Part shown: piece after piece, positions 16,372 through 46,612 of the stretch
How positions within the stretch are numbered: the stretch's first letter is position 1
Layout: every line of letters starts with the position of its first letter
Origin: Candidatus Moraniibacteriota bacterium
GTDB taxonomy: Bacteria > Patescibacteriota > Minisyncoccia > Moranbacterales > UBA2206
Assembly (NCBI GenBank): GCA_030645735.1
Contig: JAUSNP010000004.1
Span: 76,739 to 127,460, forward strand
Direction of reading: 5' to 3'
DNA length: 50,722 bases
Notes under the pieces: generated by a model
Seen by the model: the letters and a program-made list of their open reading frames with translations, nothing else
Told to the model about the DNA's origin: nothing
Database searches by the model: none
Translations under genes and position numbers: made by a program

Positions 16372-16396
16372 TCTCGTATGTTGATTACAGGTTTAG

Positions 16397-16576: not shown

Positions 16577-16581
16577 CATAT

Positions 16582-16654: not shown

Positions 16655-16682
16655 CTAAAAGAATAGTAAAAGTCTATAGTGG

Positions 16683-16757
16683 GGCGGCCATCGTCTATCG
16701 GTAAGACATCAGTTTGTGGTACTGAGAAGCTGGGTTCAACTCCCAGTGGCCGCCCCA
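16683..16757 (+). tRNA. tRNA-His(GUG) with encoded G-1 and CCA
   Basis: The parse is G(-1) GCGGCCA TC GTCT ATCGGTA AGAC A TCAGT TTGTGGT ACTGA GAAG CTGGG TTCAACT CCCAG TGGCCGC C CCA. G-1 pairs with C73, as is typical of bacterial tRNA-His. Confidence 0.85.
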
Positions 16758-16775
16758 GTATAGATTTTTATTTTA

Positions 16776-16848
16776 GCGCCCTTAGCTCAGTGGATAGAGT
16801 ACTTGGCTTCGAACCAAGGGGTCGTAGGTTCAAATCCTGCAGGGCGCA
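16776..16848 (+). tRNA. tRNA-Arg(UCG)
   Basis: The sequence is GCGCCCTTAGCTCAGTGGATAGAGTACTTGGCTTCGAACCAAGGGGTCGTAGGTTCAAATCCTGCAGGGCGCA, with anticodon loop CTTCGAA. Confidence 0.85.
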
Positions 16849-16895
16849 CACGATTAAATTCGAAGTACGAAATCACAAATTCGAAACAATTTCTT

Positions 16896-16925
16896 AAAAA
16901 TGGTCTGACTTGTCAGGCCATTTTT
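16896..16925 (+). terminator. Terminator of the tRNA cluster
   Basis: The sequence is aaaaatggtctgac-ttgt-caggccattttt, with one G:U pair. Confidence 0.6.
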
Positions 16926-16935
16926 CAGCAAAAAT

Positions 16936-17625: not shown

Positions 17626-17630
17626 AAAAT

Positions 17631-17659
17631 GTAGAGACGCCCCACTGGGGCGTCTCTAC
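17631..17659. repeat. GTAGAGACG/CGTCTCTAC hairpin in a terminator position between convergent genes
   Basis: The sequence is gtagagacgcccca-c-tggggcgtctctac, 6 nt after the methyltransferase stop. Confidence 0.8.
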
Positions 17660-17678
17660 ATTCAGGACAATTTATTTT

Positions 17679-18005
17679 TTATTTTAATTTAAAAATATCC
17701 TTTTTAGTGTCAATGTTTTTTTGATATTCATCCTGCCTTGCGGTTATACCCCTTAAAACTTTTTCAAATTTTGTCTTATTGAAAGTAGCGCTGGCTTTTT
17801 TAGTGTTCATATATTCTTGCTTTCTCACCTCGTCCCACTGATATTCATAGGCATATCCATACCAAAGATAACCGCAATATCCAATAGCCATAATAAGAAT
17901 CGCCAGTAAAACACACGCTTCTTTGCGCATAATGAAACAACTGATTTTTTTAAACAAATCACTTGGATTGATACCGCTTTGCAAATTTTTTAGATCTATT
18001 TTCAT
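17679..18005 (-). CDS. Small single-TM protein, last gene of the pilus operon
   Basis: 108 aa with one TM helix (VLLAILIMAIGYCGYLWY). Its ATG overlaps the stop of the upstream pilO-like gene by 4 nt. Confidence 0.5.
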   Translation of the reverse strand: MKIDLKNLQSGINPSDLFKKISCFIMRKEACVLLAILIMAIGYCGYLWYGYAYEYQWDEVRKQEYMNTKKASATFNKTKFEKVLRGITARQDEYQKNIDTKKDIFKLK

Positions 18006-18661
18006 TTTTTTATATACACCACCACATCTAAAATGCTATTTACAATCTCTTTGCCAACTGCTACTTTCTTTGTATTTGAGGCGGCATCGAATGGATTTGG
18101 ATTGATAGCAGACATATCTGGTTCCTTTTTTTCAGAGCTCACGGATATGATATTGACCGTTTTCTTATAATTTTCCAACTTGTGAATAAAATTCAGCAGA
18201 TTGACATAATCACCCTCTATAGCAATCTTCATGGAAAGATAGTTGGCATAGGCTAATTTGGTCTTGATATCGCCCTCATTTCCCTTCTGTTTAGCTGCCG
18301 TTTTGACATCCGCTACATCCTGAATTCGAAATTCAATTTTATTGTTAGTCTCCGCGGCTATAGCCTCGAGTTCCTTGATTAGCTCAACCTCGCTATTTGG
18401 CTCAATAACTATAGTGAAATCGCCTTCATTATCTTTAAATTTATTATAATTTTCTTTCATGCTAGGCACATCCGCCAATCTTTTTTCATTTAACTCTCCA
18501 TCAATTTTTTTCTGTTGAATTTCATCGGCCTTATTATTTATTTTATCTATAATCGGCATACCCACGAAATATAAGAGCGCAAAAACCACCGCCACATAGG
18601 TGCCGATTATTAATTGAATTTTATATATTTTCAAAAAATCTTTCATTTGTTTTTTATACAT
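18002..18661 (-). CDS. PilO-like pilus assembly protein
   Basis: 219 aa with an N-terminal TM helix and a coiled-coil segment. It sits directly after the pilN-like gene with overlapping ends. The call rests on position and architecture only. Confidence 0.5.
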   Translation of the reverse strand: MYKKQMKDFLKIYKIQLIIGTYVAVVFALLYFVGMPIIDKINNKADEIQQKKIDGELNEKRLADVPSMKENYNKFKDNEGDFTIVIEPNSEVELIKELEAIAAETNNKIEFRIQDVADVKTAAKQKGNEGDIKTKLAYANYLSMKIAIEGDYVNLLNFIHKLENYKKTVNIISVSSEKKEPDMSAINPNPFDAASNTKKVAVGKEIVNSILDVVVYIKK

Positions 18662-19197
18662 TCCTCTTTTATATCAAACTCTATCTGAAACTCCACATTC
18701 TCCTTTGAGGCTAAATTGGAAAGTGGCAGATTCACATTAGCAAAACAAGGTTCCTGTGCAAGACTGTCCTTCATGGCTATCAAAATATCGCGTGTATCCG
18801 CTATGCCAGCGATTAGCACTTTATAATTCTTGTTTGCTAGCTTATTTACACCCACGCCGTCTGGCATGGCGCTGTTTAATTTATCAAACATCCGTGACCA
18901 ATATAGCTGGTCATTTTGAATTGATTCATCCAGCGTCACCTGCGCATTCACTGTCTTAAAATTACTGTCTAAATTTGTGATGGTTTCATATTTTTCCTTG
19001 CTCTGTTTGCTCTCAAATTCACTGGTTTGCGCATCTAGATTGAACTTCAATAAATAATTCAAACTAAAAAGCAGAGCAAAAAAGACAAGTATAATAACTG
19101 CCAGCTCAATTTCCCATCGCAAAATCAATCTCATTTTACTTGATTGAGCTATTTCATCTTTTCGATATTGCGGGATGAGATTTAATTTAATTTCCAT
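18643..19197 (-). CDS. PilN-like pilus assembly protein
   Basis: N-terminal LNLIPQ motif (compare INLLP of PilN) followed by a single TM helix. It overlaps pilM by 11 nt. Confidence 0.6.
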   Translation of the reverse strand: MEIKLNLIPQYRKDEIAQSSKMRLILRWEIELAVIILVFFALLFSLNYLLKFNLDAQTSEFESKQSKEKYETITNLDSNFKTVNAQVTLDESIQNDQLYWSRMFDKLNSAMPDGVGVNKLANKNYKVLIAGIADTRDILIAMKDSLAQEPCFANVNLPLSNLASKENVEFQIEFDIKEECIKNK

Positions 19198-20266
19198 AAT
19201 TCATTCCCCTGATAGCTAGGCCAATGGCCGTAACATATCGAACGGAGGTTTCCTTATTGATTGTAGGTAAATTATCTTCTGTTTTCAAATTGACCCACGG
19301 GTTGCCCACCAACACTTCTTTTTGAGTTCTTTGATGCAAATATTCCGGCAAACCTTTCATACTTGACCCACCTCCACATAAAATTATTTTGTTTATGCCT
19401 TGCGACCGCCCAGACATCTCACCATAAAAATCCATTGTCTTATTTATTTCCATTACTAAATTTTCTATCAGCGGACTAACAGCGCTAAAAATTGGATTGC
19501 CGTCGCCCGCGTTGGCTATCCCATTGTTAACTTTCACCTTCTCAGCGTCAGCGCTACTTAAATTTAGAGCTTTGCTAATGGCATCATTGATACTTTCTGA
19601 AGAAAATGGAATGCTTGAAGTGAAATATGGCACCACGCCATCAGCGATTATAAAGCTTGTCCTGCGCGCGCCCAAATCTACAATCAATGATATCTCTCCT
19701 TGGACTGCGTTACTATCCACTAAACTCCGAATGCTAGCTATTGATTCAACTTCCAACCCATAGACATCTAGCCCCGCTAATTTCAAGACATTCATCCAGC
19801 TATCTACGATTTCTCTGGAAACTGCCACTGTTAACACCTGCTGTTTATCGTTTTCATCAACTTCCAAAAATTGCCAATCAAAATATACTTCTGCCAAAGA
19901 CATCGGCATATTAGCCTCCATTTCCCACTTGACTGCCTCGCGAGCCTCTTCCTCGCTCATTTTCGGAATAGTAATTATGCGCACAAAGGCTTTCGATTCT
20001 GGCAAAGAACAGATGACTTTGTTAGAATTTATTTTTTTCGCGCTAGCAGATTTCAACACGGACTTAATTGCCTCAGCCACAACATCTAGATTAATTATCC
20101 GCCCATCTTCAATATTACCCAAAGGGATGTCCATTGAGCCATACCCTCGCACCACATCACGGTTACCATCTTTTTCAATTTGAAAAACCTTAACCGAAAG
20201 ATCGCTCAGATCCAACCCAATTATTTTTGGTTCAAAGTTTATTATATTTTTATTGAGAAAGCTCAT
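19187..20266 (-). CDS. pilM: Type IV pilus assembly ATPase-fold protein PilM
   Basis: Actin-like motifs IGLDLSDLSVKV, LIVDLGARRTSF and ILCGGGSSMKGLPEYL. I place the start at MSFLNK (20266), because the 15 upstream codons of the track ORF lie within the CGTGAAACG word repeat. Confidence 0.8.
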   Translation of the reverse strand: MSFLNKNIINFEPKIIGLDLSDLSVKVFQIEKDGNRDVVRGYGSMDIPLGNIEDGRIINLDVVAEAIKSVLKSASAKKINSNKVICSLPESKAFVRIITIPKMSEEEAREAVKWEMEANMPMSLAEVYFDWQFLEVDENDKQQVLTVAVSREIVDSWMNVLKLAGLDVYGLEVESIASIRSLVDSNAVQGEISLIVDLGARRTSFIIADGVVPYFTSSIPFSSESINDAISKALNLSSADAEKVKVNNGIANAGDGNPIFSAVSPLIENLVMEINKTMDFYGEMSGRSQGINKIILCGGGSSMKGLPEYLHQRTQKEVLVGNPWVNLKTEDNLPTINKETSVRYVTAIGLAIRGMNYGN

Positions 20267-20325
20267 GACGTGAAACTTAAAACGTGAAACGTAAAACGTT
20301 ATGCGATACACGTTACACGATATAC
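20267..20325. repeat. Degenerate-word repeat of the CGTGAAACG family
   Basis: The sequence is gacgtgaaacttaaaacgtgaaacgtaaaacgttatgcgatacacgttacacgatatac. It shares its words with the insertion inside uvrC at 35207-35314. Confidence 0.7.
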
Positions 20326-23896: not shown

Positions 23897-25117
23897 TTAC
23901 TTTATGTTTTCCAACACGCTATACATTGGCTGTAAAATTGAAACAGCAAAAAAACCGACTACCGTTCCAATTAGCAACATCAGGACTGGCTCAATAATAG
24001 AGGATAAATTTTTGGTTATTTGGTCAACTTCTTCTTCATAAAATTCCGCCAACTTGCCCAAAACAGCCTCAGTTTTTCCTGTTTCCTCGCCCACTTCAAT
24101 CATCTGTGAGACTAGCACTGGAAAAATCTTTTTTTCTTCCCCAATAATCTTGCTCAAATTAACACCCTTTTGCACTTCACCGATTGAGTGCGTGAAAGCC
24201 CGCTTATAATAAAAATTAGTCAGAGTTCTCGAAATTATCCGCAAAGCTTCAACCACTGAAACACCACTTTTCAAAAGTGAGCTATAAATTCGAGCAAATC
24301 TAGCGCAATTAACTTTGATTACAATATTTTTTATAACTGGAATATTCAGCAATATTATTCCCAATATCTTCTTGCCAGCGTCAGTCGATAATAAAAACTT
24401 AATTCCGATTCCAAAAATAGGAAACAAGAAAATTAGCACATACCAATAATCACGAATCACATTGCTTGAATCAATAATAAATTGCGTTGAGGCTGGCAAA
24501 GTAGCATTCAAATCTTTAAATACGCTCGTAATTTGCGGCACAACATAAACCATCATCACGATACCAACTAATCCCATCGCCACCAAAATTACACTCGGAT
24601 ACACCAAAGCGCCTCTAACTTTTTTTATCAGCTCATGATCTTTTTCCAATTGCAAAGCCAAGATATTCAACACCTCTTCCAAACTTCCACTTACCTCTCC
24701 CACCCGAATCATATTGACAAACAGATCATCAAAAGTCCCTGGGAACTTGGCTAAACTATCAGCAAAACTAGCTCCTGTTTGAATGTCCTCGCTCACATGG
24801 TTAAGCACCTCGATAAATTTTTTATTTGCGGTTTGTGCGGTTATATTCTGCAAAGAGCGTGACAGTGGCAGCCCAGAAGAAATCATAACACTCAAGTTTT
24901 TAGCAAACATCATCTTTTCTGCCACAGAAATGCCAGAAAATCTATCCATAAATTTGATTTGGATAGCCTGGCCATCTTCGCTTTTCAATTCCTTAAATGA
25001 TGTCAACACAAAACCATCCGCGCGCAATTGCGAAGCTAGCTCTCTCTCATCATTCACTTTCATTTCACCACTTTTAGTTTCACCTGAGAAACTTTTGGCA
25101 GTATAAAAAATATCCAT
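23897..25117 (-). CDS. pilC: Type IV pilus platform protein PilC (T2SS F family)
   Basis: 406 aa with duplicated T2SSF domains and three or more TM helices, in the typical position next to pilB. Confidence 0.9.
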   Translation of the reverse strand: MDIFYTAKSFSGETKSGEMKVNDERELASQLRADGFVLTSFKELKSEDGQAIQIKFMDRFSGISVAEKMMFAKNLSVMISSGLPLSRSLQNITAQTANKKFIEVLNHVSEDIQTGASFADSLAKFPGTFDDLFVNMIRVGEVSGSLEEVLNILALQLEKDHELIKKVRGALVYPSVILVAMGLVGIVMMVYVVPQITSVFKDLNATLPASTQFIIDSSNVIRDYWYVLIFLFPIFGIGIKFLLSTDAGKKILGIILLNIPVIKNIVIKVNCARFARIYSSLLKSGVSVVEALRIISRTLTNFYYKRAFTHSIGEVQKGVNLSKIIGEEKKIFPVLVSQMIEVGEETGKTEAVLGKLAEFYEEEVDQITKNLSSIIEPVLMLLIGTVVGFFAVSILQPMYSVLENIK

Positions 25118-25231
25118 GATGTTATAAATCTCTAATTAATAACTAATTTTACCCTAATTTTCCCTAATCTTTTTTAAAAAAATTTGCGAATATTCGTGAC
25201 TTGATTCGAGACTGATTCGTGATTTATATCA

Positions 25232-26977
25232 TTATTCTTTGGTTACTCTCAATATTTCCTCAACTGAGGTTATTCCACTAACCGCCTTCACAAAGCCATC
25301 TTCCACCATCGTCAACATGCCTTTTTCGCGCGCTCTTTTTTCCATTTCTTCCGTAGGTGTTTTTTGTGAAATCATTTTTTCAATTTCATCATCAACTTCC
25401 AAAACTTCATAAATTCCACTTCGGCCTTTGTAGCCCTCGTTATGGCATTGCTCACAGCCAACAGATTTATATAATTTTATATCTTCCCATTTGGCATTTT
25501 TATCGATTGAGTCTTTTAATAATTCATTTTTCTTAATAACTTCCAGCAGTGACGGCATATCATAACTTTCACCCAGCGCCTCCAACTCTCCAGATGTCAT
25601 CTGATATTCTTTTTTACAATCCTGGCAAAGTTTTCTAACCAAGCGTTGCGCAATGATCACATTCACGGTAGAAGCCACCATAAACGCTTCAGCGCCCATA
25701 TCGATGATTCGGGGTAGGGTAGCCGCGGCACTGTTGGTATGCAAGGTAGATAAAACGAGATGTCCAGTCAACGCCGCATGAATCGCCATTTCCAAAGTCT
25801 CCTGATCTCGAATTTCTCCAACCATTATAATATCTGGGTCTTGACGCAAAAGCGAACGCAAGCCAGCCGCAAAAGTCAGACCAACCTTAGTATAAATCTG
25901 CGTTTGATTGACTCTGGGCATTCGATATTCTACTGGGTCTTCAACTGTACTAATATTGACTTCCGGCGTATTCAAAATATCCATAATTGTATACAGCGTG
26001 GTGGTTTTCCCTGACCCAGTCGGGCCTGTTACCAGAATCATGCCATTGGGTTTTTTGATTTGTCGATGGATGATTTCCAGCCCTAAGCCAGTCATTCCCA
26101 TTTTTTCCAAGGTCAGTCCCTTGCTATTTTCATTCAAAAGACGCATTACGATTTTCTCGCCATCAAAAATTGGCAGGATGCTGACACGAAAAGAAATCTT
26201 CAAATCATCTTTTTCAATTTTAAACCGACCGTCCTGCGGAACGCGATGTTCATCTAGTTTCAAATTAGACAACACTTTGATTCTAGCAATGATCCCGTGC
26301 TTAACCTGCTTCGGCAGGGTCATTGCGTCATGCAAAATTCCGTCAATGCGATAGCGCACGCGCACTTCTTTTTCATCTGGCTCAATATGAACATCACTAG
26401 CGCCCTGCAGAATTGCATGTTTGATTAGCGTATCAACAATTCTAATTATTGGCAGACCCTGTGCGACTTTTTCCAAGTCTTCTTTTTCATCCCCATCAAC
26501 TTGTGAAGAATTTTTTTCAATAATATCTCCGAATTCCGCCTTCAAACTCTTAGCATATTGCTTTAAAATAATGTTGATACTATCTTCTGAAGTTAAGCAA
26601 GTAACTATTTTTAGGCCAGTTTTTTTGCGGATAAAATCCACTGTCTGAATATCCTCGGGATTTAACATGGCAATCTTCAACTCCGATCCACTCTTTTCAA
26701 AGGCCACGATTTTATATTTCTTGGCAATCGGTTCTGGCACAATTTGCAAAATATCTGTAGGAATGATTTCTTTCGTTAAATCAACAAACGGCACGCCCAG
26801 GATATAAGCATATAGCTCACGCAATTTCACCTCATCAATCAGTTTTTTCTCCAACAAGACCTCGCCTAATATTTTGGCGCTGTCTTGAGATTCTTTGTAT
26901 GCCAATTCAAGATCCTCAAGCTTGATTAGCTCAGAATCTTTAATAAATTCATATAGTTGTTTATTTTCAATCCGCAT
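25232..26977 (-). CDS. pilB: Type IV pilus assembly ATPase PilB (GspE family)
   Basis: It has an N-terminal T2SSE_N-like domain, Walker A GPTGSGKTTTLY, ASDVHIEP, and a tetracysteine cluster CQDC...CEQC. Confidence 0.9.
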   Translation of the reverse strand: MRIENKQLYEFIKDSELIKLEDLELAYKESQDSAKILGEVLLEKKLIDEVKLRELYAYILGVPFVDLTKEIIPTDILQIVPEPIAKKYKIVAFEKSGSELKIAMLNPEDIQTVDFIRKKTGLKIVTCLTSEDSINIILKQYAKSLKAEFGDIIEKNSSQVDGDEKEDLEKVAQGLPIIRIVDTLIKHAILQGASDVHIEPDEKEVRVRYRIDGILHDAMTLPKQVKHGIIARIKVLSNLKLDEHRVPQDGRFKIEKDDLKISFRVSILPIFDGEKIVMRLLNENSKGLTLEKMGMTGLGLEIIHRQIKKPNGMILVTGPTGSGKTTTLYTIMDILNTPEVNISTVEDPVEYRMPRVNQTQIYTKVGLTFAAGLRSLLRQDPDIIMVGEIRDQETLEMAIHAALTGHLVLSTLHTNSAAATLPRIIDMGAEAFMVASTVNVIIAQRLVRKLCQDCKKEYQMTSGELEALGESYDMPSLLEVIKKNELLKDSIDKNAKWEDIKLYKSVGCEQCHNEGYKGRSGIYEVLEVDDEIEKMISQKTPTEEMEKRAREKGMLTMVEDGFVKAVSGITSVEEILRVTKE

Positions 26978-30021: not shown

Positions 30022-30120
30022 CATGAAACATGAAGCATGGAACATGCAACATGTAGCACGAGTCAAAAAAAACCTGCCAAAGCAGGTTGTTTCATGTTAT
30101 ATGTTTCGTGTTATATGACG
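30022..30120. repeat. Degenerate-word inverted repeat (CATGAAACATG type) enclosing a terminator hairpin
   Basis: The left arm is catgaaacatgaagcatggaacatgcaacatgtagcacg. The central hairpin is aacctgc-caaa-gcaggtt with an A/T run. The right arm is gtttcatgttatatgtttcgtgttatatgacg. Confidence 0.7.
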
Positions 30121-31140: not shown

Positions 31141-31350
31141 GGCGTTAGTGCGTTTCTAAATTCCAGATTATGAGCGTTAAAAAATTTCATACTAGCAATC
31201 CTTTAGCGTTCTTATTGGAATTTTAGCGAACAAGTTGAAAATTTGTCTTGGTATGCAGCTGTGCGGCCTTTTTCTTTTTTGCCACTTTTCTTTTGGGAAA
31301 AGAAAAATGGCGTACTGATTTCTTTGCTGCCAAAGAAAATGGACGCCCTG
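31141..31350 (+). repeat. Mosaic repeat element, copy X1 (~210 nt), abutting the uvrA-paralog stop
   Basis: Its parts recur at 46208-46378 (inverted, diverged) and at 46531-46612 (direct, 81 of 82 nt identical to 31233-31314). It contains hairpins ccacttttctttt-ggg-aaaagaaaaatgg (31281-31309) and tttctttg-ctgc-caaagaaa (31318-31337). Confidence 0.8.
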
Positions 31351-34200
31351 CTAAATATACTTCGCCGTCCAACTCTTCTTCACATGTTTCAGCTTATCTG
31401 GTGTTCCAGCATAAACAACCTCACCACCTTTGTCACCACCATCTGGTCCGATATCAATCACCCAGTCAGAATTGCGAATCACATCAACATTGTGCTCAAC
31501 CACCAGCACTGAATTGCCCTTATCCACCAGTGCATCTAATACACCTAGGAGTCTTTTTACATCATCAAAATGCAAACCGATGGTTGGTTCATCTAAAATA
31601 TACAAGGTTTTACCAGTTGATTTGCGTGAAAGTTCCGTGGCCAGCTTGATTCTTTGCGCTTCACCGCCGGAAAGATTGGTGGCGCTTTGACCGAGCTTCA
31701 AATAACCCAAACCGACTTGTTCCAAGGTGGAAAGCTTTTCTACAATCAAGGGTGATTTTTTGAAAAAGCGCAAAGCATAGGACACACTCATATCCAAAAC
31801 TTCAGCGATGTTCACACCTTGATACTCAATGTCCAGCGTCTTGGGATTATATCTTGTCCCACCACAAGATTCACATTTCACATACATATCCGGCAACAAG
31901 TGCATTTCAATCTTCTTGGTGCCATCTCCTTGGCAAACTTCGCATCGTCCACCCTTCATATTAAAACTAAAACGACTAGGGGTGTAGGCGCGATTTCTCG
32001 CTTCCTCAGTTGAGGCGAATAAATCCCGAATCAAAGAGAATACACCCGTATAGGTGGCGGCGTTTGATCTTGGCGTTCGCCCAATCGGTGCCTGATTGAT
32101 ACTAATGACCTTGTCCACATTATCTAGGCCTTTGATTTTCTTATGCGCCCCTGGAGTTTCTTTGCAATTGAAAAAATGTCTGGACAGCGCCTTAGCTAAA
32201 ATATCAGAAACTAGAGATGATTTACCAGATCCAGACACGCCCGTGATAGAAACAAACTTGCCTAGCGGGATTTCCACATCAATATTTTTCAGATTATGCT
32301 CCGTGGCGCCAATGATTTCGATTGATTTCTTGTTGCCCTTTCTATAAGTTTTCTTTTCTGACACCTTTTTCTTGCCTATCAAATATTGCGCCGTGGAAGT
32401 TTTTGAATTCAATAGTTTTTTGAAATCGCCTTGAAAAATAACTTCGCCACCTTCTTCGCCAGCGCCTGGCCCCATGTCAATAATCCAATCAGCCTTGCGG
32501 ATGATGTCTTCATCATGTTCGACCACAATCAAAGAATTGCCAGCTTCTTTCAAGAGTTGCATAGTATTGATCAATTTTTCTGTGTCGCGATTGTGCAGTC
32601 CAATGGACGGCTCATCTAAAACATAGGTGATGCCCATCAATTCTGAACCAATCTGAGTGGCCAATCTGATTCTTTGCGCTTCACCGCCAGAAATTGAATT
32701 AGCGCCACGAGAAATTGATAGATATTCCAAGCCAACATTGATCAGCGCCTCAGTTTTCAATTTCATTTCTTTTACTAACGGCGCGGCGATGTCTCGCCTT
32801 GTCCGATCAACTTTCAAATTTGTTTCCACGCTATTCAAAAACGCCATAAATTTTCCAAGATCCACACTCACCACATCATCAATGGACTTGTCATCAATCA
32901 TCACGGCTAAAAATTCATCTTTGAGTCTCTTGCCTTCGCAAGCTGGGCAAACTTTTTCCAACATGTATTTCTCCAAATCACTGCGAACATAGTCGGACGC
33001 CGCTTCTTGGTATTTTTTCTTGATCATTGGAATCACGCCCTCAAAAATCACCCGCACTTCTTTCATTCCGCCCATATCACCTTTTTGTTCAATCAAAATT
33101 TCCTTGCGCTCTGGGCCAAAGAAAATGATATCGATGGCTTCTTTAGATAGTTTTTTCACTGGCGCATCAATAGAAAAACCATATTCCTTGCCTAGCACTT
33201 CCAAAATGTTCATATAATTGCCTTGCCCGCCCAATCGGCCATTGGATTTGCTCCAAGGCAAAATTGCCCCTTCAGATAAAGAGAGATTTTTATTAGGCAT
33301 CACTAGGTCAATATCCACTTCTTTGGTTATGCCTAAACCAGAACAGTGATCGCAAGCCCCTTCCGGGCTATTGAAAGAAAAGTGTCTTGGAGTTATTTCC
33401 GAAATTCGCGTGTGACATTCATGACACACAAAGTCTTTGTTATAAAATCGGTCTTCCTCGCCAATGACCGCTACAATAATTGAGCCATTGCCAACCTTGA
33501 GACCTGTTTCAATTGAATCCACAATTCGCTCTGAATCAGGATTTTTGTGCTTCACCACAATCCGATCAATCACCACTTCAACAGCGCTCTCAAACTGATC
33601 GCTGGCAATTGCAATCGCCTCAGTCACCAACATGATTTTGCCATTGAACCGCACGCGTGCATAACCAATCTGGCTAATACTACGCAAAACCTCTTTAGAA
33701 TTTTTGCTTGTCTCTTTGATTTTGGCCAAAATTGCCACCTGAGTGTTTTCCGGAAAACTCAAAATGTCCTGCAACATTTCTTGGTTGCTTTTTCTCACCA
33801 TTCCCGTTCCGCATTTGGGACAATGGGGTGCGCCAATCTTGGCAAACAAAACACGCAAATAATCATAAATCTCCGTGAGTGTTCCCACAGTTGAACGCGG
33901 AGAACGACTCAGGCTTTTCTGATCAATCGAAATAGTCGGACTCAAGTTTTCAACCTTGTCTACATCCGGCTTAGCCCCCACGTCCAGAAACTGTCGTGCA
34001 TAGGATGACATGCCTTCTAGATATCTACGATTGCCTTCGGCATAAACCACATCAAAAGCCAAGGATGATTTCCCTGAGCCAGAAAGCCCCGTCACCACCA
34101 CCAATTGGTCTCGAGGGATATCAATATCTACATTTTTAAGGTTATTTACCTTAGCTCCACGAATTATGATCTTGTCTCGAACTTTAGAAGATTTATTCAT
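31351..34200 (-). CDS. uvrA: Excinuclease ABC subunit A, divergent full-length paralog
   Basis: 949 aa with [13 protein letters not shown], two ABC signature motifs LSGGEAQRI and all zinc modules (CPKC, CHEC..CDHC, CPAC, CEVC..CESC). The N-terminal consensus is more diverged than in the second copy. Confidence 0.88.
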
Positions 34201-34275
34201 GTGTATGTAAATATAGTAAGATTTAAACTCTAGTTAAACATTTTAGGGCATTTTCTTGGGTTTGTAAAGGACTAA

Positions 34276-34313
34276 GTAGAGACGAGTCCGCCAGCTGGCG
34301 GACTCGTCTCTAC
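34276..34313. repeat. Perfect 38-nt nested palindrome: GTAGAGACG outer stem enclosing CCGCCAGCTGGCGG
   Basis: The sequence is gtagagacgagtccgccag|ctggcggactcgtctctac, lying between the uvrC stop and the uvrA-paralog start. Confidence 0.85.
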
Positions 34314-34324
34314 CTGTGAAAAAA

Positions 34325-35737
34325 TCAAATAAATTCGCTTTTACGCACCTTACGATGATATGTTATCGCAAATCGATGCGCTTCATCCATAATAGTCTTG
34401 ATCAAATTCTTATCGTCTAAAATATTTTTAATTTCTTTTGAAAATTTAGTTATTGATAATTCATTGGATCCGCCAGCTGGCGGAGGAAATTGGAAATTGA
34501 GATTTTTACGAGTCTTGCCTTTTGCAACACCGACTATTGGTATAGCAAAACCCAATTTACTCAGAAGATCAGCTGCCATATTGACATGTCCAGCACCACC
34601 ATCTAGCAAAATCAAATCTGGTTGCGTCCAAGCATTGTTGAGTCGTCGCGACAAAACCTCTTGCATCATGGCCACATCATTGGCACCCTCGACAGTTTTG
34701 ATTTTGAATTTGCGATATTCTTTTTTGTTCGGCTCGCCGTTCTCAAAAACCACCATTGATCCCACAGCCTGTTGGCCAGAGATGTTTGAGATGTCATAGG
34801 CTTCGATTCGAAATTTATCTGTGCCCCCGTAGAGACGAGGCAATGCCTCGTCTCTACCGCTTGAAATTAAGGCAACATCTTGAATATGTTGAAGGGCAAA
34901 AATCTTGTTCCTCACCTCCGTCGCTTTCTCAAATTCTTCTTTCTTGGCCAATGCTGACATTTCTTTTTCCATTTTCTTCAACAAGCTTTTTTTCTTGCCC
35001 TCCAAAATCATCTGAATACCTCGAATATTTTTGGCATAATCCGCCTTGGAAATCGCCCCCGCATACGGCCCTGGGCAACGCCCCAATTGAAAATCCAGAC
35101 AACCTTTTTCCGTTTTATTTTTACTCGAATGAAACGGAAAAATCTTCCGTACAATCTTCAATGCGATTTCCATTTGTTTTTTGGAAGTGTATGGACCGAA
35201 CAATCGTGAAACGTGGATCGTGGATCGTGGATCACCTTGCTTTGCGTTCCACGTTTTGCGTTTTGCATTTTGCGTTTTGCGTTCCACGTTTTGCGTTCTA
35301 CGTTTTGCGTCTTCCAGATCTGTTTTTCTCACAATCATCACTTTCGGAAACTCCTCTTTTGTAATCACAAAATACGCATACGACTTGTCATCCTTGCCCA
35401 ACACATTATATTTCGGCTGATGCTTCTTGATCAAATTAGCTTCCAAAATCAACGCCTCCAAAACACTCTCCGTTTCTTGCACCTCAATGTCCGCCACTTG
35501 CGCAATCATCATCTCAATCGGCCTCAAAGAAATCCCTTCATTTCCTCTTCTCCCTTTGGGAGAAGGTGCCCGAAGGGCGGATGAGGGCAAAGCGGAGGCA
35601 AAATACGACCCGACCCGGCTCCTCAAACTCGTCGCCTTGCCCACATATATAATTTTGCCTTTCGCATCACGGAAAATATACACCCCCGGAACTTGAGGTA
35701 AATCCTTTACTTTTTCATTTATATTTGCTACTTTCAT
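34325..35737 (-). CDS. uvrC: Excinuclease ABC subunit C (no C-terminal helix-hairpin-helix domain; carries several repeat insertions)
   Basis: GIY-YIG motif GVYIFRDAKGKIIYVGKA..YN, UVR domain EEFEKATEVRNKIFALQHI, endonuclease-V-like core RIEAYDISNISG and DEAHRFAITYHRK. The ORF ends about 8 aa later. Confidence 0.85.
   Translation of the reverse strand: MKVANINEKVKDLPQVPGVYIFRDAKGKIIYVGKATSLRSRVGSYFASALPSSALRAPSPKGRRGNEGISLRPIEMMIAQVADIEVQETESVLEALILEANLIKKHQPKYNVLGKDDKSYAYFVITKEEFPKVMIVRKTDLEDAKRRTQNVERKTQNAKRKTWNAKQGDPRSTIHVSRLFGPYTSKKQMEIALKIVRKIFPFHSSKNKTEKGCLDFQLGRCPGPYAGAISKADYAKNIRGIQMILEGKKKSLLKKMEKEMSALAKKEEFEKATEVRNKIFALQHIQDVALISSGRDEALPRLYGGTDKFRIEAYDISNISGQQAVGSMVVFENGEPNKKEYRKFKIKTVEGANDVAMMQEVLSRRLNNAWTQPDLILLDGGAGHVNMAADLLSKLGFAIPIVGVAKGKTRKNLNFQFPPPAGGSNELSITKFSKEIKNILDDKNLIKTIMDEAHRFAITYHRKVRKSEFI
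34469..34483. repeat. CCGCCAGCTGGCGG palindrome inside uvrC (encodes PPAGG)
   Basis: tccgccagctggcgga has the same core as the loop of the 34276-34313 palindrome. Confidence 0.6.
34829..34858. repeat. GTAGAGACG/CGTCTCTAC hairpin inserted in-frame in uvrC (encodes GRDEALPRLY)
   Basis: The sequence is gtagagacgaggca-a-tgcctcgtctctac. It maps exactly to UvrC residues 294-303. Confidence 0.8.
35207..35314. repeat. CGTGAAACG-family word-repeat insertion, in-frame in uvrC
   Basis: cgtgaaacgtggatcgtggatcgtggatc ... gcgttccacgttttgcgttttgcattttgcgttttgcgttccacgttttgcgttctacgttttgcg encodes EDAKRRTQNVERKTQNAKRKTWNAKQGDPRSTIHVS (residues ~142-177). Confidence 0.75.
35528..35596. repeat. GGGAGAAGG/GCCCGAAGGGC hairpin element, in-frame in the uvrC GIY-YIG domain
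   Basis: cttctccc-tttg-ggagaag and gccc-gaa-gggc encode SALPSSALRAPSPKGRRGNEGIS (residues ~48-70). The segment lies between ..RVGSYF and the conserved E-x-x-L-I-x-x-x-x-P-x-YN segment. Confidence 0.7.
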
Positions 35738-35797
35738 AGTATTAGAATAAACTTATTCAATGTCCTTTTCACTAATATACTTCGAGGAGGTGCACCT

Positions 35798-36109
35798 ATG
35801 GGATTTATCAAAAAGATAGATATGGTAAGCTTTTTTCAAAAACTCGTAAACATTCTGGCTGGAACACCTGAGCAGGATGAAGTTAAAAAAATTATTCAGG
35901 AATTTGAATCTGGGTCATTCACTGCTCGAAATGAGTTTCTACCAAAAATAAATAAGCTCTTTAGAAACTATGACACCCTGAGTTTTTATCCTGATGACAT
36001 CCTCGCATTTAAGAGTCCTGAGGAACTCTATGACACCCTTCGCAGAAAAGCTCAACTGTTCAAGCAAGTTCAGGCACTTGAAGATGAGTGGCAATCCCTC
36101 ATTTCTTAA
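35798..36109 (+). CDS. Hypothetical 103-aa protein
   Basis: Strong Shine-Dalgarno GAGGAGG 6 nt before the ATG, with a terminator hairpin downstream. No motif recognised. Confidence 0.6.
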   Translation: MGFIKKIDMVSFFQKLVNILAGTPEQDEVKKIIQEFESGSFTARNEFLPKINKLFRNYDTLSFYPDDILAFKSPEELYDTLRRKAQLFKQVQALEDEWQSLIS

Positions 36110-36133
36110 ATGAACTAAATCACCCTTCTATCT

Positions 36134-36169
36134 AGGAGCTTTCCGCCACGCGGACAGCTCCTGTTTTTT
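36134..36169. terminator. Terminator hairpin between convergent genes
   Basis: The sequence is aggagct-ttccgccacgcggac-agctcct followed by gtttttt. Confidence 0.65.
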
Positions 36170-36212
36170 ATATTTTTAAAAATCAGTGGAATCATGTGCG
36201 CTCAGGTGCGAA

Positions 36213-39155
36213 TCAGTGGTTCAGATATTCCCTCAAATATTTTGCTGTATAACTTTCTTTGTGATATTGCACAATTTCTTCTGGTGGGCCAGTCACAATC
36301 ACGCGCCCGCCTTGATCGCCACCTTCTGGACCAAGATCAATGATCCAATCAGCCGTTTTGATCACGTCCATGTTATGCTCAATCACAATCACCGTGTTGC
36401 CTGCATCCACCAAGCGATTCAAAACCACTAGCAATTTTTTGATGTCATCAAAATGAAGTCCTGTGGTCGGTTCATCCAGGATATACAAAGTGTCACCCGT
36501 GGCTCGGCGAGATAATTCTGTGGCCAATTTGATGCGTTGCGCTTCACCGCCTGACAAAGTTGTGGCGGCTTGTCCCAAATGGATATAGCCCAAGCCAACA
36601 TCTTCCAACACCGCCAGCTTATCATAGATATCATGGAAACTTTCAAAAAAGTCTTTGGCTTCCGAAACGGTCATAGCCAAAACTTCGGCAATGTTTTTGT
36701 CCTTATATTTCACCTCAAGTGTTTCGCGATTGTACCGTTTGCTTTTGCACACATCACACGGCAAATAGACATCTGGCATAAATTGCATTTCAATCTTGAT
36801 GTAGCCCTCGCCTTGGCAATTGTCACAACGTCCACCTTTCACATTGAAAGAGAATCGCCCAGGACCAAAACCCTTGCTCTTGGAACCGCGTGTGGAAGCG
36901 AACAATTCACGAATCGGTGTGAACAAACCGGTGTACGTCGCCGGATTGGAACGCGGGGTGCGACCAATCGGCGACTGATCAATCATAATAATTTTGTTGA
37001 TATGTTGCACACCCAAAATTTCTGAATGCTTGCCAGCTTTTTCCAAAGAATGCATCAACTTGTTGGACAATGATTTATACAAAATATCTTCTACCAAGGA
37101 TGATTTGCCGGAACCCGACACCCCCGTCACCACCGTCAAAACTTTCAAAGGAAATTCCACTGTCACATTTTTCAAATTGTTTTCCCGCGCGCCCCGCACC
37201 ACCAGCCATTTCTTGTTTTTCACATTGCGCCGCACCGCTGGCACTTCAATTTTCAATTCTCCATTCAAATATTGCGCTGTCAAAGACTTCTTGTTTTTCA
37301 TCACTTCCTCTGGCGTGCCTTGCGCCACAATTTCGCCACCCAAGCGACCGGCTCCTGGACCAATATCCACCAAATAGTCAGCTTCACGCATCGTCTCTTC
37401 ATCATGTTCGATCACAATCAAAGTGTTGCCGATGTCGCGTAACTGCAAAAGTGTTTGTAGCAACTTAGTGTTGTCGCGCGCATGCAAACCAATCGATGGT
37501 TCATCTAGAATATACAAAACGCCCACCAATTGTGAACCGATTTGTGAAGCCAAGCGAATCCGTTGCGCTTCTCCACCCGCCAAAGTGGCGGCTGAGCGTG
37601 ACAAAGTCAAATAGCCCAAACCAACATTTTCCAAAAATCCCAAACGCGCCTGAATTTCTTTCAAGATGCGTCCGGCAATCAATTCTTCCGTCTTGTTGAT
37701 TTTCAAATCTTTGAAAAATTTCAGAGATTCCTCCACGCTCACATCTGACACGCCCGCAATATTTCTCTCTCCCACAGTCACCAACAAAACTTCCGGTTTA
37801 TAGCGTTTGCCTTTGCAAATTGAGCACGGATTTTGTGACATATATTTTTCGATATTGGCCCGCACTGCATCTGATTCAGTTTTGAAATAGCGGTCTTGCA
37901 AAAAGCCCACCACGCCCCGCCAGCTCATCGAAAAAGTCCAAGCTGTGCCAGTCTTGGCGCGAATGCGAATGGCCACTTCTTCTGCTTCTTCTTCCGAAAT
38001 CATGTCCGTGGCGTCTGACGCGCCATACAACAAGCAGTTCAGTTTGCGTTCTGGCAAATCGCGCAAACGCACATTGTCAGAAATATTGAAATGTTTGCAC
38101 ACTGACAACAGCACGCCGCCATAATAATTGTTTTTCTTGAAATTCCACGGCATGAGTCCGCCTTCAGCGATTGTCTTGCTCATGTCCGGCATCACCAACT
38201 CTGGATCGATTTCCTTCTTGGTGCCCAAGCCCTCACAAGCTGGACAGGCGCCATATGGCGAATTGAATGAAAACAATCTTGGCTCCAATGTCGGAAACTC
38301 AATCTCATGCACCGGACATGCCAATTTCTGATTGAAAATGAATTCTTCTTTTTTGTTCCCCCTCGCCCTTTGGGAGAGGGCCGGGGTGAGGGCTCTAACT
38401 CTCACCAATCCTTCCGCCAACTTCAACGCTCTCTCTACATCTTCAAAAATCCGTGACAAATTTTCATCTTGAATTTTCACCACATCAACTACAATATCAA
38501 TACTATGTTTTTTGTATCTTTCCAATTTGATATCCATCGTGCTGGCCAATTCGATTTTTTTCTCATTCACATAGGCCACTGAGAAACCACGCTTAAACAT
38601 CTCTTCTAGCAACGAGGAATATTCACCCTTTCTTTGACGCACCACTGGTGCGATGATTTCGATTTCTTGTCCTTCGCCCCCGCCTCGCGTCGACGAGTGG
38701 TCGTCTCCACGAGTCGAGGCGGGAATCCCAATGATCCGATCGACAATTTCATCCGTTGAAAGTTTGGTGATTTCTCGTCCGCATTCAGGACAATGCGGAA
38801 CGCCGATTTTGGCAAACAGCAAACGCAGATAGTCATGGATTTCCGTGACCGTTCCCACTGTTGAACGTGGATTCTGCGAAGAAGCTTTTTGGGAGATAGA
38901 AATGGCTGGTGACAGCCCTTCGATATAGTCCACATCTGGCTTGTCCATCTGCCCCAAAAACTGCCGCGCATAACTCGACAAACTTTCCAAATATCTTCGT
39001 TGCCCTTCGGCAAAAATTGTATCAAAAGCTAAGGTCGATTTGCCCGACCCTGAAATACCTGTAAAAACAATGAATTTGTCACGTGGAAGCTCCAAATCAA
39101 TGTTTTTCAGGTTATGTTCCCTTGCCCCTTTGATGATTATTTTATCCATATTCAA
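36213..39155 (-). CDS. uvrA: Excinuclease ABC subunit A (consensus-like copy)
   Basis: 980 aa. [58 protein letters not shown] is close to the canonical UvrA N-terminus. It has two LSGGEAQRI signature motifs and all zinc modules, and carries two insertions. Confidence 0.92.
38355..38396. repeat. GGGAGAGGG-type GC-rich element, in-frame in uvrA (encodes [14 protein letters not shown])
   Basis: The plus strand reads ccccctcgccctttgggagagggccggggtgagggc. This is strongly GC-rich against an AT-rich gene. Confidence 0.7.
38670..38723. repeat. GC-rich hairpin element, in-frame in uvrA (encodes [18 protein letters not shown])
   Basis: ccgcctcg ... cgaggcgg is an 8-bp outer stem, with inner gacga-gtgg-tcgtc. 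It maps to residues 145-162. Confidence 0.65.
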
Positions 39156-39240
39156 TGTTCTTAGTACGACTGATTATACTACGAAATAACATAAAAATCA
39201 ATCAAATAAAAACCGCTATTTTCTAGCAGTTTTTCATATT

Positions 39241-39311
39241 GTCATTCCCGTGGAAACGGGAATCTAGTATCCAAGCTCTGTGACTAGATTCCCGATCAGG
39301 TCGGGAATGAC
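39241..39311. repeat. Composite palindromic element GTCATTCCCG...CGGGAATGAC
   Basis: Two hairpins, attcccg-tggaa-acgggaat and attcccga-tcaggt-cgggaat, are bracketed by gtcat/atgac and ctagt/actag. Confidence 0.75.
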
Positions 39312-39316
39312 AATAC

Positions 39317-41648: not shown

Positions 41649-43607
41649 TTATTTCAACTGCAACTTTCGCAACTGCAAAATCTCATCGCGAATGATGGCT
41701 GCTTTTTCAAATTGCAAGGCTTTGGAAGCTGCTTTCATTTCTTTTTCTTTTTGCCGGATATAACCCTGCACATCTTCCAAGGATTCCAACTCGGAGAAAT
41801 CACGCGTGAATTCTGGCTTGATTTCATGATCCACAATTGATTCAATGTTTTTCTTGATGGTTTGTGGTGTGATGTGATGTTTTTTGTTATACGCTGTTTG
41901 CACTGCGCGTCGGCGATTGGTTTCATCAATCGCCCGCTTCATGGAACCGGTGATTTTGTCCGCATACAAAATGACGCGTCCGGAAACATTGCGCGCTGCC
42001 CGCCCAATAGTTTGAATCAATGATGTTTCACTGCGCAAGAAGCCTTCTTTGTCAGCATCCAAAATTGCCACCAAGGAAACTTCTGGCAAATCCAAGCCTT
42101 CACGCAAAAGATTGACACCCACCAAAACATCAAATTCTCCGCGTCGCAAATTTTCCAAAATCCGAATGCGATCCAGCGTGTCCACATCAGAATGCAGATA
42201 TTCCGTCTTGATGCTATTTTCTTTCAAAAATTCTGACAAATCTTCCGCCATCTTTTTCGTCAGCGTGGTAATCAAAACTCGCTCCTGCTTGGCCACCACT
42301 TTTTCAATCTCCGGCAAAATGTCTTTGACTTGACCCTTAGCTGGCTTGATTACAATTTCTGGATCAATGAGACCGGTGGGTCGAATAATTTGTTCCAACA
42401 CCTGCGCTGAATTTTTCTTTTCATATTCCGCTGGTGTAGCCGAAGTAAAAATCATCTGATTGATTTTCTTTTCAAATTCAACAAACTTCAAGGGTCGATT
42501 ATCATAAGCGCTCGGCAAGCGAAAACCATTTTCCACCAAAGCCGTCTTGCGCGAAAAATCACCATTGAACATCCCGCCAATTTGGGGAATGGTCACATGT
42601 GATTCATCCACCACCATCAAAAAGTCCTTCGGAAAATAGTCGATCAAAGTGTCTGGCGCCTCACCAGCATTTCTGCCAGTCAAATAGCGGGAATAATTTT
42701 CAATCCCGTTGCAATAGCCAATTTCACGCATCATCTCAATGTCTTGGCGTGTGCGACGACTCAATCTTTCGGCTTCCAAAAGTTTGCCGGCCTTTTTCAA
42801 GAGTGCCACTTGTTTTTCCAAATCCTTTTCAATCGAGCTTTGCGCTTCTTGCATGATTGGTTCCGGCACCACAAAATGCTTGGCCGGGAAAATCATCACT
42901 TGTTCCAACTTGCCCAACTCGCTACCTGTCAAAAAATCATATTCAAAAATCTTTTTCACTTTGGAATCGTGCAATTCAATGCGCGTCACAATCTCGCGTG
43001 CCGGCGACATGATCTCCACCGTCTCACCCGTCATGCGAAACTTGGAACGCCCCAACATATCGGTGCGCAGATATTGCATCTCGATCAACTCACGAGAAAT
43101 TTCATCACGTGAAATTTTTTGTCCCACTTTGATTTCCATCGCGATGTCGCGATAATATTCTGGTGAACCCAAGCCATAAATACACGACACTGAGGCCACA
43201 ATAATCACGTCCGTGCGTGACAACAAGGCCGCCGTGGATGCATGGCGCAATCGATCAATCTCTTCGTTGATTTGCGATTCCTTTTCAATATAGGTGTCAC
43301 TGGATGCGATATAAGCTTCCGGCTGATAATAGTCATAATAAGACACGAAATATTCCACCGCGTTTTTCGGAAAAAAAGTGCGAAACTCTTGCGCCAATTG
43401 GGCGGCCAAAGTTTTGTTGGGTGCAATGACTAAGGTCGGCTTTTGCACCTGCTCAATCACGTTGGCAATCGTGAAAGTCTTGCCCGAGCCAGTCACACCC
43501 AAAAGCGTCTGAAATTTCTGCCCAGCTTTGAGACCTTTGACCAATCCCGCAATCGCCTGAGGTTGGTCGCCAGATGGCACATATTTTGAGTTAATCTTGA
43601 ATTTCAT
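41649..43607 (-). CDS. uvrB: Excinuclease ABC subunit B
   Basis: Walker A GVTGSGKT, VDESH, helicase C-terminal motifs, and the C-terminal UVR domain FEKAAIIRDEILQLRK. Confidence 0.92.
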   Translation of the reverse strand: MKFKINSKYVPSGDQPQAIAGLVKGLKAGQKFQTLLGVTGSGKTFTIANVIEQVQKPTLVIAPNKTLAAQLAQEFRTFFPKNAVEYFVSYYDYYQPEAYIASSDTYIEKESQINEEIDRLRHASTAALLSRTDVIIVASVSCIYGLGSPEYYRDIAMEIKVGQKISRDEISRELIEMQYLRTDMLGRSKFRMTGETVEIMSPAREIVTRIELHDSKVKKIFEYDFLTGSELGKLEQVMIFPAKHFVVPEPIMQEAQSSIEKDLEKQVALLKKAGKLLEAERLSRRTRQDIEMMREIGYCNGIENYSRYLTGRNAGEAPDTLIDYFPKDFLMVVDESHVTIPQIGGMFNGDFSRKTALVENGFRLPSAYDNRPLKFVEFEKKINQMIFTSATPAEYEKKNSAQVLEQIIRPTGLIDPEIVIKPAKGQVKDILPEIEKVVAKQERVLITTLTKKMAEDLSEFLKENSIKTEYLHSDVDTLDRIRILENLRRGEFDVLVGVNLLREGLDLPEVSLVAILDADKEGFLRSETSLIQTIGRAARNVSGRVILYADKITGSMKRAIDETNRRRAVQTAYNKKHHITPQTIKKNIESIVDHEIKPEFTRDFSELESLEDVQGYIRQKEKEMKAASKALQFEKAAIIRDEILQLRKLQLK

Positions 43608-46530: not shown

Positions 46531-46612
46531 GTTGAAAATTTGTCTTGGTATGTAGCTGTGCGGCCTTTTTCTTTTTTGCCACTTTTCTTTTGGGAAAAGA
46601 AAAATGGCGTAC
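46531..46612 (+). repeat. Mosaic repeat element, partial copy X3 (81 of 82 nt identical to 31233-31314)
   Basis: gttgaaaatttgtcttggtatgTagctgtgcggcctttttcttttttgccacttttcttttgggaaaagaaaaatggcgtac differs from X1 at a single position. An inverted fragment, ataccaagatacaaattgaaac, lies at 46450-46471. Confidence 0.85.

Follow-up and report, generated by a model that had tools for sequence, protein, structure and literature searches.

Which short repeats are found inside protein-coding genes? The closest described system is that of the GTAG- and CGTC-tagged repetitive extragenic palindromic (REP) sequences, some of which lie wholly within open reading frames (ORFs) (Di Nocera, De Gregorio and Rocco 2013, BMC Genomics 14:522; PMC3733652). 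A comparable case is described here for uvrC, the gene for subunit C of excinuclease ABC, in 50,722 nucleotides of DNA (the window) from Candidatus Moraniibacteriota bacterium (contig JAUSNP010000004.1), a member of the Patescibacteria or candidate phyla radiation (CPR). Four in-frame, stop-free segments of this gene consist of short palindromes and heptanucleotide tandem arrays. The locus is very probably a working uvrC whose permissive loops have been colonised by short repeats common in Patescibacteria genomes, with selection acting as the filter.

Intragenic REPs code for about 7-30 amino acids, and many of their hosts are genes for replication or global genome repair, including recB and polA (PMC3733652). 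The legend to Figure 7 and a supplementary table of that survey give insertions in uvrA (Opitutus terrae and Thioalkalivibrio) and in uvrB (Rickettsia conorii). A single gene can carry several inserts, and recB of two Xanthomonas species has been struck at about the same site. The term 'uvrC' is absent from the text of the survey and from its text-form supplementary files.

The GTAG-ended palindrome of the uvrC locus, termed F1 here, resembles REPs in that both are palindromes of 20-40 nt that start with GTAG. REPs are found mainly between genes and near the 3' ends of ORFs; of the four F1 copies in the window, three lie outside genes and two directly after stop codons. As with REPs, a minority of the elements lie wholly inside ORFs, and the hosts include excinuclease ABC subunits. 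By contrast, the GTAG motif of REPs is unpaired (PMC3733652), whereas that of F1 is base-paired in a perfect palindrome, the same arm of which also has CGTC. The host of F1 belongs to the CPR, which is not listed in the REP survey. F1 differs further in the lack of a REP-associated tyrosine transposase (RAYT) in the ORFs scanned (20 in the window and those beside three F1 clusters), and the uvrC case in the re-use of the same four loops across a phylum-level group.

A second precedent is provided by the Rickettsia palindromic elements (RPE), reportedly described by Ogata and colleagues in Science in 2000, which are said to lie in-frame in protein genes. RPE are also mentioned in PMC3733652 and PMC1779305. 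The initial annotation of the window had likened the uvrC segments to RPE, a reading that is supported functionally; similar insertions extend beyond RPE and have been published for REPs. Both RPE and the uvrC elements are selfish-looking palindromic repeats that lie in-frame in essential genes and would be surface-exposed once translated, with function kept; as in RPE, the uvrC segments are in-frame, stop-free insertions at permissive sites of a functional gene. RPE are set apart by description: RPE-1 is about 100-150 bp long whereas the uvrC elements measure 16-60 nt, the sequences are unrelated, and the RPE host is an obligate intracellular alphaproteobacterium, whereas CPR bacteria are free-living or episymbiotic.

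Heptanucleotide arrays have counterparts as well. The cyanobacterial STRR (short tandemly repeated repetitive) sequences, reportedly described by Mazel et al. in 1990, are heptanucleotide tandem repeats. Others are the TAACTGA repeats of Beggiatoaceae (PMC4679880) and heptameric simple sequence repeats (PMC4692102). All of these have 7-nt tandem units spread over the genome, as do the arrays of the window. The published arrays are mainly intergenic, whereas those in uvrC and recG would be read in-frame, as inserts with a 7-residue period. A further paper (PMC6649704) describes coding palindromes in mitochondrial genes of Nematomorpha, which are perfect inverted repeats with both arms translated. 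As described there, they share with the uvrC palindromes a location inside protein-coding genes and differ in being organellar, up to 284 bp long and without a dispersed intergenic family.

Open-access papers and preprints yielded nothing specific on palindromic or in-frame insertions in CPR/Patescibacteria, on the peptides or on the DNA words (which gave primer matches only), so novelty is unproven. The uvrC case is a known phenomenon in a new lineage.

Repeat Segments within uvrC

The gene and its four repeat segments are located as follows.

34325 to 35737, minus strand: uvrC coding sequence, 470 residues, intact; GIY-YIG, UVR and RNase H-like endonuclease domains, without a C-terminal (HhH)2 domain
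34829 to 34858, minus strand: site a, F1 element; perfect palindrome of 29 nt, GTAGAGACGAGGCA-T-TGCCTCGTCTCTAC, which one further G extends to 30 nt
35203 to 35314, minus strand: site b, heptanucleotide tandem arrays; residues ~142-177, with the 7-residue period KTQNAKR
35528 to 35596, minus strand: site c, two-hairpin GC-rich element; GIY-YIG domain, alpha1-alpha2 loop (residues 48-70)
34469 to 34499, minus strand: site d, 16-nt perfect palindrome F2, TCCGCCAGCTGGCGGA (34469-34484, PPAGG), plus a heptamer remnant; loop of the endonuclease domain

The initial annotation had proposed these four segments as in-frame, stop-free repeat elements, and all four are real, with an exact match in coordinates and in the mapping of residues to DNA. 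They fall into two classes. One is made up of REP-like perfect palindromes: F1, with its GTAG ends, at site a; F2, of 16 nt, at site d; and, at site c, the element with two hairpins. The other consists of heptanucleotide tandem arrays, at site b and as the remnant at site d.

Site a codes for GRDEALPRLY (residues 294-303), which forms part of the linker that joins the UVR domain to the endonuclease domain. Its palindrome (34829-34857) has 14-bp arms and a 1-nt loop, ends in GTAGAGACG...CGTCTCTAC and folds as RNA at -25.7 kcal/mol (z = -6.4). The 11-mer GTAGAGACGAG is found four times in the window, against an expected 0.10. The proposal that this hairpin also occurs in intergenic DNA is borne out by three further copies of F1 (GTAGAGACG..CGTCTCTAC) in the window, all outside genes.

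3667 to 3696: intergenic F1 copy with a 15-bp stem, between two tRNA genes
17628 to 17662: intergenic F1 copy with a 17-bp stem, directly 3' of the stop codon of a methyltransferase ORF (16936 to 17625)
34276 to 34313: composite F1/F2 palindrome, 38 nt and perfect, 12 nt downstream of the uvrC stop codon

The four copies are 29-38 nt long, with perfect stems of 14-19 bp, which fits the short stem-loops of REPs, and two of them lie directly after stop codons. GTAG stands at the 5' end of both strands and is paired with CTAC within the stem. One of the three frames of F1 contains TAG; intragenic copies use just the two open frames, which give peptides of the type VET..SL or RD..RLY/VST. These hairpins are very stable as RNA (z = -6 to -10).

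In the 34276-34313 hairpin, the outer 11-nt arms are those of site a and the centre is F2; thus, element (d) is nested inside element (a). Exactly two copies of TCCGCCAGCTGGCGGA are present in the window, one at site d and one in this centre, as had been noted for the PPAGG palindrome. The hairpin adjoins the uvrA1 promoter at 34268-34240 (TTTACA-17-TAAAAT). F1 was also considered as a canonical intrinsic terminator and rejected: the terminator scan did not call the F1 hairpins, and no T tract follows 34276-34313. An Rfam scan of the whole window at the gathering threshold returned eight tRNAs and none of the repeat elements.

At site b, the first array (35241-35310) consists of ten copies of TTTGCGT (coding strand ACGCAAA/ACGTGGA) or, alternatively, of two copies of a 35-nt block with 91% identity; the second (35203-35233) holds 4.4 copies of ATCGTGG (coding strand GATCCAC). 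Both are degenerate, with 71-87% matches and at most about three consecutive perfect units. They form an insert of ~30 residues in a loop that otherwise has 5-7, and the peptide has a 7-residue period because three units of 7 nt make 21 nt. The segment had been described as a word array that shares words with intergenic DNA at 20267-20325. It is indeed an array of the same heptamer type, ACG[C/T]RRA, as the one at 20268-20322; the shared words come down to a single 9-mer, CGTGAAACG, which is weak alone. Site b is a tandem array and not a hairpin; its fold as a single large hairpin (z = -1.6) is not significant.

Site c adds ~20 residues to a 5-residue baseline. It contains GCCCTTCGGGC at 35568-35578 and an 8-bp stem, CTTCTCCC-AAA-GGGAGAAG, at 35547-35565, and the 86-nt region folds with z = -2.4. 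The GC-rich hairpins that had been reported here are real, but the intergenic counterpart is not: the words of site c do not recur in the window and, hence, no intergenic copy exists there. Site c nevertheless belongs to a family with a recognisable consensus. Other members are in-frame too, one in uvrA2 (38346-38402) and others in UvrC from the relative L082, at its sites c and b. At site d, the heptamer remnant consists of 2.1 copies of GGAAATT (34485-34499) and adjoins F2.

The UvrC Protein

Is the gene that carries these segments functional? Pfam matches cover GIY-YIG (PF01541, residues 18-111), UVR (PF02151, 250-284) and UvrC_RNaseH_dom (PF08459, 310-458, E = 6e-45). Solved fragments of UvrC (Bacillus caldotenax, Thermotoga maritima and Deinococcus) can be aligned to both halves of the protein: the GIY-YIG domain aligns with 1YD6 and 1YCZ, and the endonuclease domain, with its Asp/Asp/His site, aligns with 3C65, 2NRR and 8B0Q. 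Catalytic motifs and reading frame had been read as intact, and they are: the GIY-YIG residues Y20, Y31, K34, R41, E99 and N111 and the endonuclease residues D315, D379 and H454 are invariant among 31 orthologs, and the 470-residue ORF is open throughout. All of the ~180 orthologous uvrC ORFs examined are intact. The best database relatives are 55-72% identical and, where named, are excinuclease ABC subunit C from Candidatus Moranbacteria or Parcubacteria; the exact protein is represented in the protein collection by one sequence from one contig.

UvrC of model organisms has a C-terminal (HhH)2 DNA-binding domain. No Pfam match to HhH was found in the UvrC of the window, which stops 12 residues past the endonuclease domain. 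Every aligned Patescibacteria UvrC stops at the same point, straight after the RNase H-like endonuclease domain, and the missing (HhH)2 is a lineage trait rather than a truncation.

Insertion and Turnover among Orthologs

Two sets of orthologs were compared, an alignment of 31 Moranbacteria UvrC and, separately, 63 Patescibacteria UvrC genes from species-representative genomes. Loop lengths were measured between conserved anchor residues of the alignment; those for the 63 genes are as follows.

Site c: usually 5 residues, 25 in the UvrC of the window
Site b: usually 5-7 residues, 37 in the UvrC of the window
Site a: usually 9-14 residues, 17 in the UvrC of the window
Site d: usually 12-13 residues, 30 in the UvrC of the window

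Occupancy of the alignment columns is 0-40% inside sites c, b and d and about 60-70% at site a. Judged from these alignments, all four segments are lineage-specific indels, as their reading as insertions had implied. The same peptides were not seen as ancestral sequence of distant lineages in the ortholog alignments, and there are no signs of a pseudogene.

The insertions turn over rapidly enough to differ between close relatives. In L083, which is 80% identical and the closest relative compared at the DNA level, sites c and b have baseline loops and site a holds another heptamer array, (AATCTCA)n; the one element in common is F2 at site d. The nine nearest relatives (77-86% core identity) are without F1 at site a. 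F1 is present at this site in at least eight orthologs, namely the UvrC of the window, P0055/L081, P0056, P0020/L082, P0031, L020, L027 and L030. Both stop-free frames are used among these, and the inner cores of the copies differ yet remain self-complementary. P0020, P0055 and P0056 are mutual near neighbours. The best reading is that F1 was acquired more than once at the same linker; one old insertion followed by many losses is the alternative.

Local copies of the palindromes show a similar pattern. The window and L085 have the hairpin downstream of uvrC; L084 and L082 lack it, despite a conserved flank at the uvrA1 promoter. In L085, the inner core of this downstream hairpin, GAGGCAnTGCCTC, is that of the intragenic copy at site a in the window. 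At site d, three orthologs have the same 15 nt of F2, despite synonymous differences in the codons on either side.

Other orthologs carry repeats of their own at the same four sites. These include perfect palindromes with stems of up to 24 bp (L015, L030 and L053) and heptamer arrays with peptide periods of the KIQNPKS, ISNFKFQ or NSKFKIQ type. A single element can be found at two sites of one gene, as at c and b in L016 and L082 and at c and a in L015. Some of the families are intergenic in the window and in-frame in the UvrC of relatives: CCTGCC..GGCAGG (4984-5003) recurs in L010, L014 and L045, and ATTCCCG..CGGGAAT (39244-39308) in L002 and L076. Among the 66 inserts in the 63 orthologs (at least 8 residues over baseline), 48% contain either a perfect palindrome of 8 bp or more or a strong 7-nt periodicity, compared with 3.7% of length-matched core segments of the same genes. 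Equivalent inserts are present in dozens of independent assemblies from different projects.

A fifth insertion site lies in the endonuclease domain, between VVFEN and PNKKEY. Two close relatives, P0006 and P0008, have an F1-type peptide there (VEMQNLASVQ or VETQSIASVQ); the UvrC of the window has none.

Where do the inserts fall in the folded protein? Site c, as residues 49-75 of the protein, corresponds to residues 48-54 of the solved GIY-YIG domain 1YD6, in the loop after helix alpha1, and PPAGG at site d is a gap in the alignment to Thermotoga UvrC 2NRR. In an AlphaFold2 model, residues 50-71, 158-172, 286-306 and 421-430, which represent the four sites, have a predicted local distance difference test score (pLDDT) below 50 and no regular secondary structure. 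These placements put the segments in loops, for which the model is supporting and not decisive evidence.

Palindromes beyond uvrC

Perfect palindromes in the window are strongly intergenic. The density of GC-rich perfect palindromes was determined over 1.28 Mb of Patescibacteria loci.

Outside ORFs: 0.53 per kb
UvrC: 0.32 per kb
UvrB: 0.23 per kb
UvrA2: 0.13 per kb
Other ORFs: 0.09 per kb
UvrA1: 0.04 per kb, the lowest of all gene classes

UvrC is thus an unusually frequent coding host of palindromes, with ~3.5 times as many per kb as the remaining ORFs of these loci.

F1 is also widespread. A metagenome scan for GTAGAGACG-N6-14-CGTCTCTAC matched at least 120 stretches, and the following figures refer to 90 F1 copies at the 80 loci listed. 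Exactly 28 nt is the length of 71 copies and 47 are perfect palindromes; the host contigs range from 29% to 70% G+C, and 37 copies fall within open frames 100 or more codons long. In the form GTAGAGACG-N10-CGTCTCTAC, the outer 9 nt are conserved; the inner 10 nt vary yet remain self-complementary, and the element has two opposed CGTCTC (BsmBI/Esp3I) sites. Copies can be clustered, with four identical ones in about 1.3 kb (L109) or four in about 0.9 kb (L087). None of the 90 listed copies lies inside a homolog of uvrA, uvrB, uvrC or recG; therefore, a general targeting of repair genes, including those of nucleotide excision repair (NER), by F1 was rejected.

How Did the Repeats Become Part of uvrC?

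The simplest account is that short palindromes and heptamer arrays are common repeats of these Patescibacteria genomes, which insert or expand in the DNA itself. The palindromes behave as dispersed elements that are gained and lost, mostly intergenic, often located just after stop codons and able to nest; the arrays most likely expand via slippage or block duplication. In an indispensable gene such as uvrC, the survivors would be those that meet the filter of a permissive loop, a length that is a multiple of 3 nt and a frame free of stop codons. Surviving elements would then pass through transcription and translation and form disordered loops of the protein that serve no necessary function. 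It is this account of a working gene colonised at permissive loops that is considered very probable.

Several observations weigh against it. The recurrence of F1 at exactly site a, in at least eight orthologs and two frames, exceeds what a filter of tolerance predicts, and so does the identity of F2 in three orthologs despite synonymous changes in its flanks. No Y1/RAYT or other transposase was found with Pfam in the 20 ORFs of the window that were scanned, nor was a RAYT found in the ORFs adjoining the F1 clusters of L087, L109 and L148. The copy number of F1 in this genome comes from the 50-kb window only. The AlphaFold2 model is of moderate quality (mean pLDDT 67, from a 31-sequence alignment), and the conserved segments 110-119 and 201-222 score low as well. 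Finally, the retention of the segments in mRNA and protein is presumed, as are their neutrality and their mode of insertion.

The patterns of F1 at site a and of F2 hint at targeting, local templated copying or a constraint at the nucleic-acid level. Likewise, the nesting of the copies in and beside uvrC and their local likeness go beyond tolerance alone and leave room for templated copying, targeting or a role in cis. In a stronger version, NER genes of Patescibacteria, and UvrC foremost, would be preferred and re-used landing sites for cross-phylum 28-nt GTAG palindromes and heptamer arrays, with the linker hairpin kept regardless of frame. This version is unlikely. If it were true, it would imply a RAYT-independent process of site-directed insertion or local templated copying or, alternatively, a cis-acting role of the hairpins in the mRNA or DNA of repair genes.

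Could the hairpins be selected for such a role? They might act as nucleic-acid elements within the coding sequence, either in mRNA stability, pausing or processing or as protein-binding palindromes that tune the expression of the uvrC-uvrA1 cluster. This idea is consistent with the finding that at the site a linker the hairpin is retained and the peptide is not, with the self-complementarity of inner cores that otherwise vary, with the unchanged nucleotides of F2, with the F1 copy that adjoins the conserved uvrA1 promoter, and with the high stability of the hairpins. However, most close relatives are without F1 at site a, the downstream hairpin is missing from L084 and L082 where the promoter flanks are conserved, and unrelated palindromes or heptamer arrays occupy the same sites in other orthologs. 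Together with the lack of an Rfam match and of listed metagenome copies in NER genes, this makes a selected cis-acting role quite improbable.

The arrays raise a different question, namely whether uvrC is a phase-variable contingency gene in which the gain or loss of one or two 7-nt units would shift the frame, turn NER off and create a reversible mutator state. Units of 7 nt are not divisible by 3, the frame is kept only by the arrays taken whole, and heptamer arrays recur in UvrC of many relatives and in recG. In simple-sequence contingency loci, a high rate of slippage requires far longer tracts than the perfect runs at site b of uvrC. The uvrC arrays are not long perfect tracts; they are degenerate (71% matches), and the orthologous ORFs, ~180 of ~180, are intact. 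Phase variation is accordingly a very doubtful explanation.

It is also highly improbable that the segments are ancestral, compositionally biased and hypervariable linkers that resemble repeats by coincidence and were never inserted. The length of the four sites does differ throughout the Patescibacteria, and part of what is added at site d (SNELSITKFSKEIKN) is conserved within Moranbacteria. This proposal is largely refuted by the exact sequences shared with intergenic DNA (the 11-nt arm of F1 and the 16-mer of F2), by ortholog inserts with perfect palindromes of up to 24 bp, by the excess of repeats in inserts over core segments and by the baseline loops at sites b and c of L083.

An assembly artefact or an untranslated pseudogene, for which the single contig with the exact protein might speak, is scarcely credible given equivalent inserts in independent assemblies, an intact ORF with strong domain scores and invariant catalytic residues, and a conserved synteny of uvrB, uvrA2, uvrC and uvrA1. 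Diversity-generating retroelements, inteins and introns were rejected by reasoning alone, because the segments are 5-37 residues long, are palindromic or tandem and have to be in-frame and stop-free, which is not needed for splicing.

Other Repeats and Genes of the Window

Further repeats that touch genes or share the unit types of uvrC are as follows.

38346 to 38402, minus strand: diverged copy of the site c family in uvrA2; in-frame, 11-residue peptide (residues 256-266), at an indel-variable site
38679 to 38723, minus strand: imperfect hairpin with 19-nt arms in uvrA2; in-frame, 16-residue peptide (residues 147-162), at an indel-variable site
7123 to 7283, plus strand: heptamer arrays (AGTCAAC)n and (GATGACC)n in recG; in-frame, residues ~345-399
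20268 to 20322, plus strand: intergenic heptamer array (ACGTGAA/ACGTAAA)n, with the unit type of uvrC site b

Across 56 orthologs, both hairpin segments of uvrA2 coincide with indel sites of low occupancy; residues 384-392 of this protein form a third variable stretch. The recG arrays form three clusters that interrupt the match to the DEAD/ResIII helicase domain, and they code for ..VSSHQSTVNGN..VISQWSTV..VISQQSTVNN... Circular permutation turns their unit, AGTCAAC, into CAACAGT, the unit of the cyanobacterial STRR3.

About 12 of the 45 tandem-repeat rows of the window have a period of 7 or 14, and such arrays are found in at least five intergenic spacers. Heptamer or 14-mer arrays lie in spacers between co-directional genes at 20268-20322, 25055-25219, 30022-30117 and 6050-6080; neighbouring genes encode a type II/IV secretion ATPase (25232 to 26977) and a PilN-like protein (18643 to 19197). 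Two near-identical intergenic blocks of imperfect inverted repeats (GTGCGGCCTTTTTCTTTT ... AAAAGAAAAATGGCGTAC) lie 15 kb apart, at 31261-31315 and 46558-46612.

Nested intergenic hairpins are located upstream of uvrA2 at 39237-39315, where TATTGTCATTCCCG...CGGGAATGACAATA encloses ATTCCCG..CGGGAAT hairpins, and a 20-nt perfect GC palindrome, CCTGCCTGCCGGCAGGCAGG, lies at 4984-5003 upstream of a tRNA (5042-5128). Both families would be translated in UvrC of other Patescibacteria, as peptides of the DSRLRGND and LPAGRQ type. In L045 (Candidatus Uhrbacteria), eight copies of CCTCTCCC..GGGAGAGG are found within 21 kb (4201-19385), all in long ORFs, which are uvrB, uvrA2, uvrC and two others; uvrA2 of this locus alone has six GC-rich palindromes. 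The uvrB of L016 has a palindrome with a 23-bp stem.

The repair genes around uvrC are uvrA1 (31351 to 34200) and uvrA2 (36213 to 39155, minus strand), so that uvrC is flanked by two UvrA paralogs (31351-39155). Further repair genes of the window are uvrB (41649 to 43607) and recG (6087 to 8351, plus strand). The order uvrB, uvrA2, small ORF, uvrC, uvrA1 is kept in Moranbacteria relatives, including L081, L082 and L085.

Significance for Patescibacteria

The interest of the case is moderate and lies in the density of the inserts and in their recurrence at four sites across Patescibacteria UvrC. The earlier bias of intragenic REPs towards replication and repair genes is extended to a new major lineage. 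The inserts account for much of the variation in length among CPR UvrC (408 to 531 residues in the best matches), and they explain recurrent odd peptides of metagenomic data, such as VETxxxASL, RDAxxRVST, PPAGG, LPAGRQ, SPxGRG and KIQNPKS. It is advisable to mask the flagged segments before alignment, tree building or structure prediction. At the same time, they mark out where UvrC naturally permits insertions. Small and streamlined as CPR/Patescibacteria genomes are, their NER proteins would appear to be studded with translated repeat DNA.

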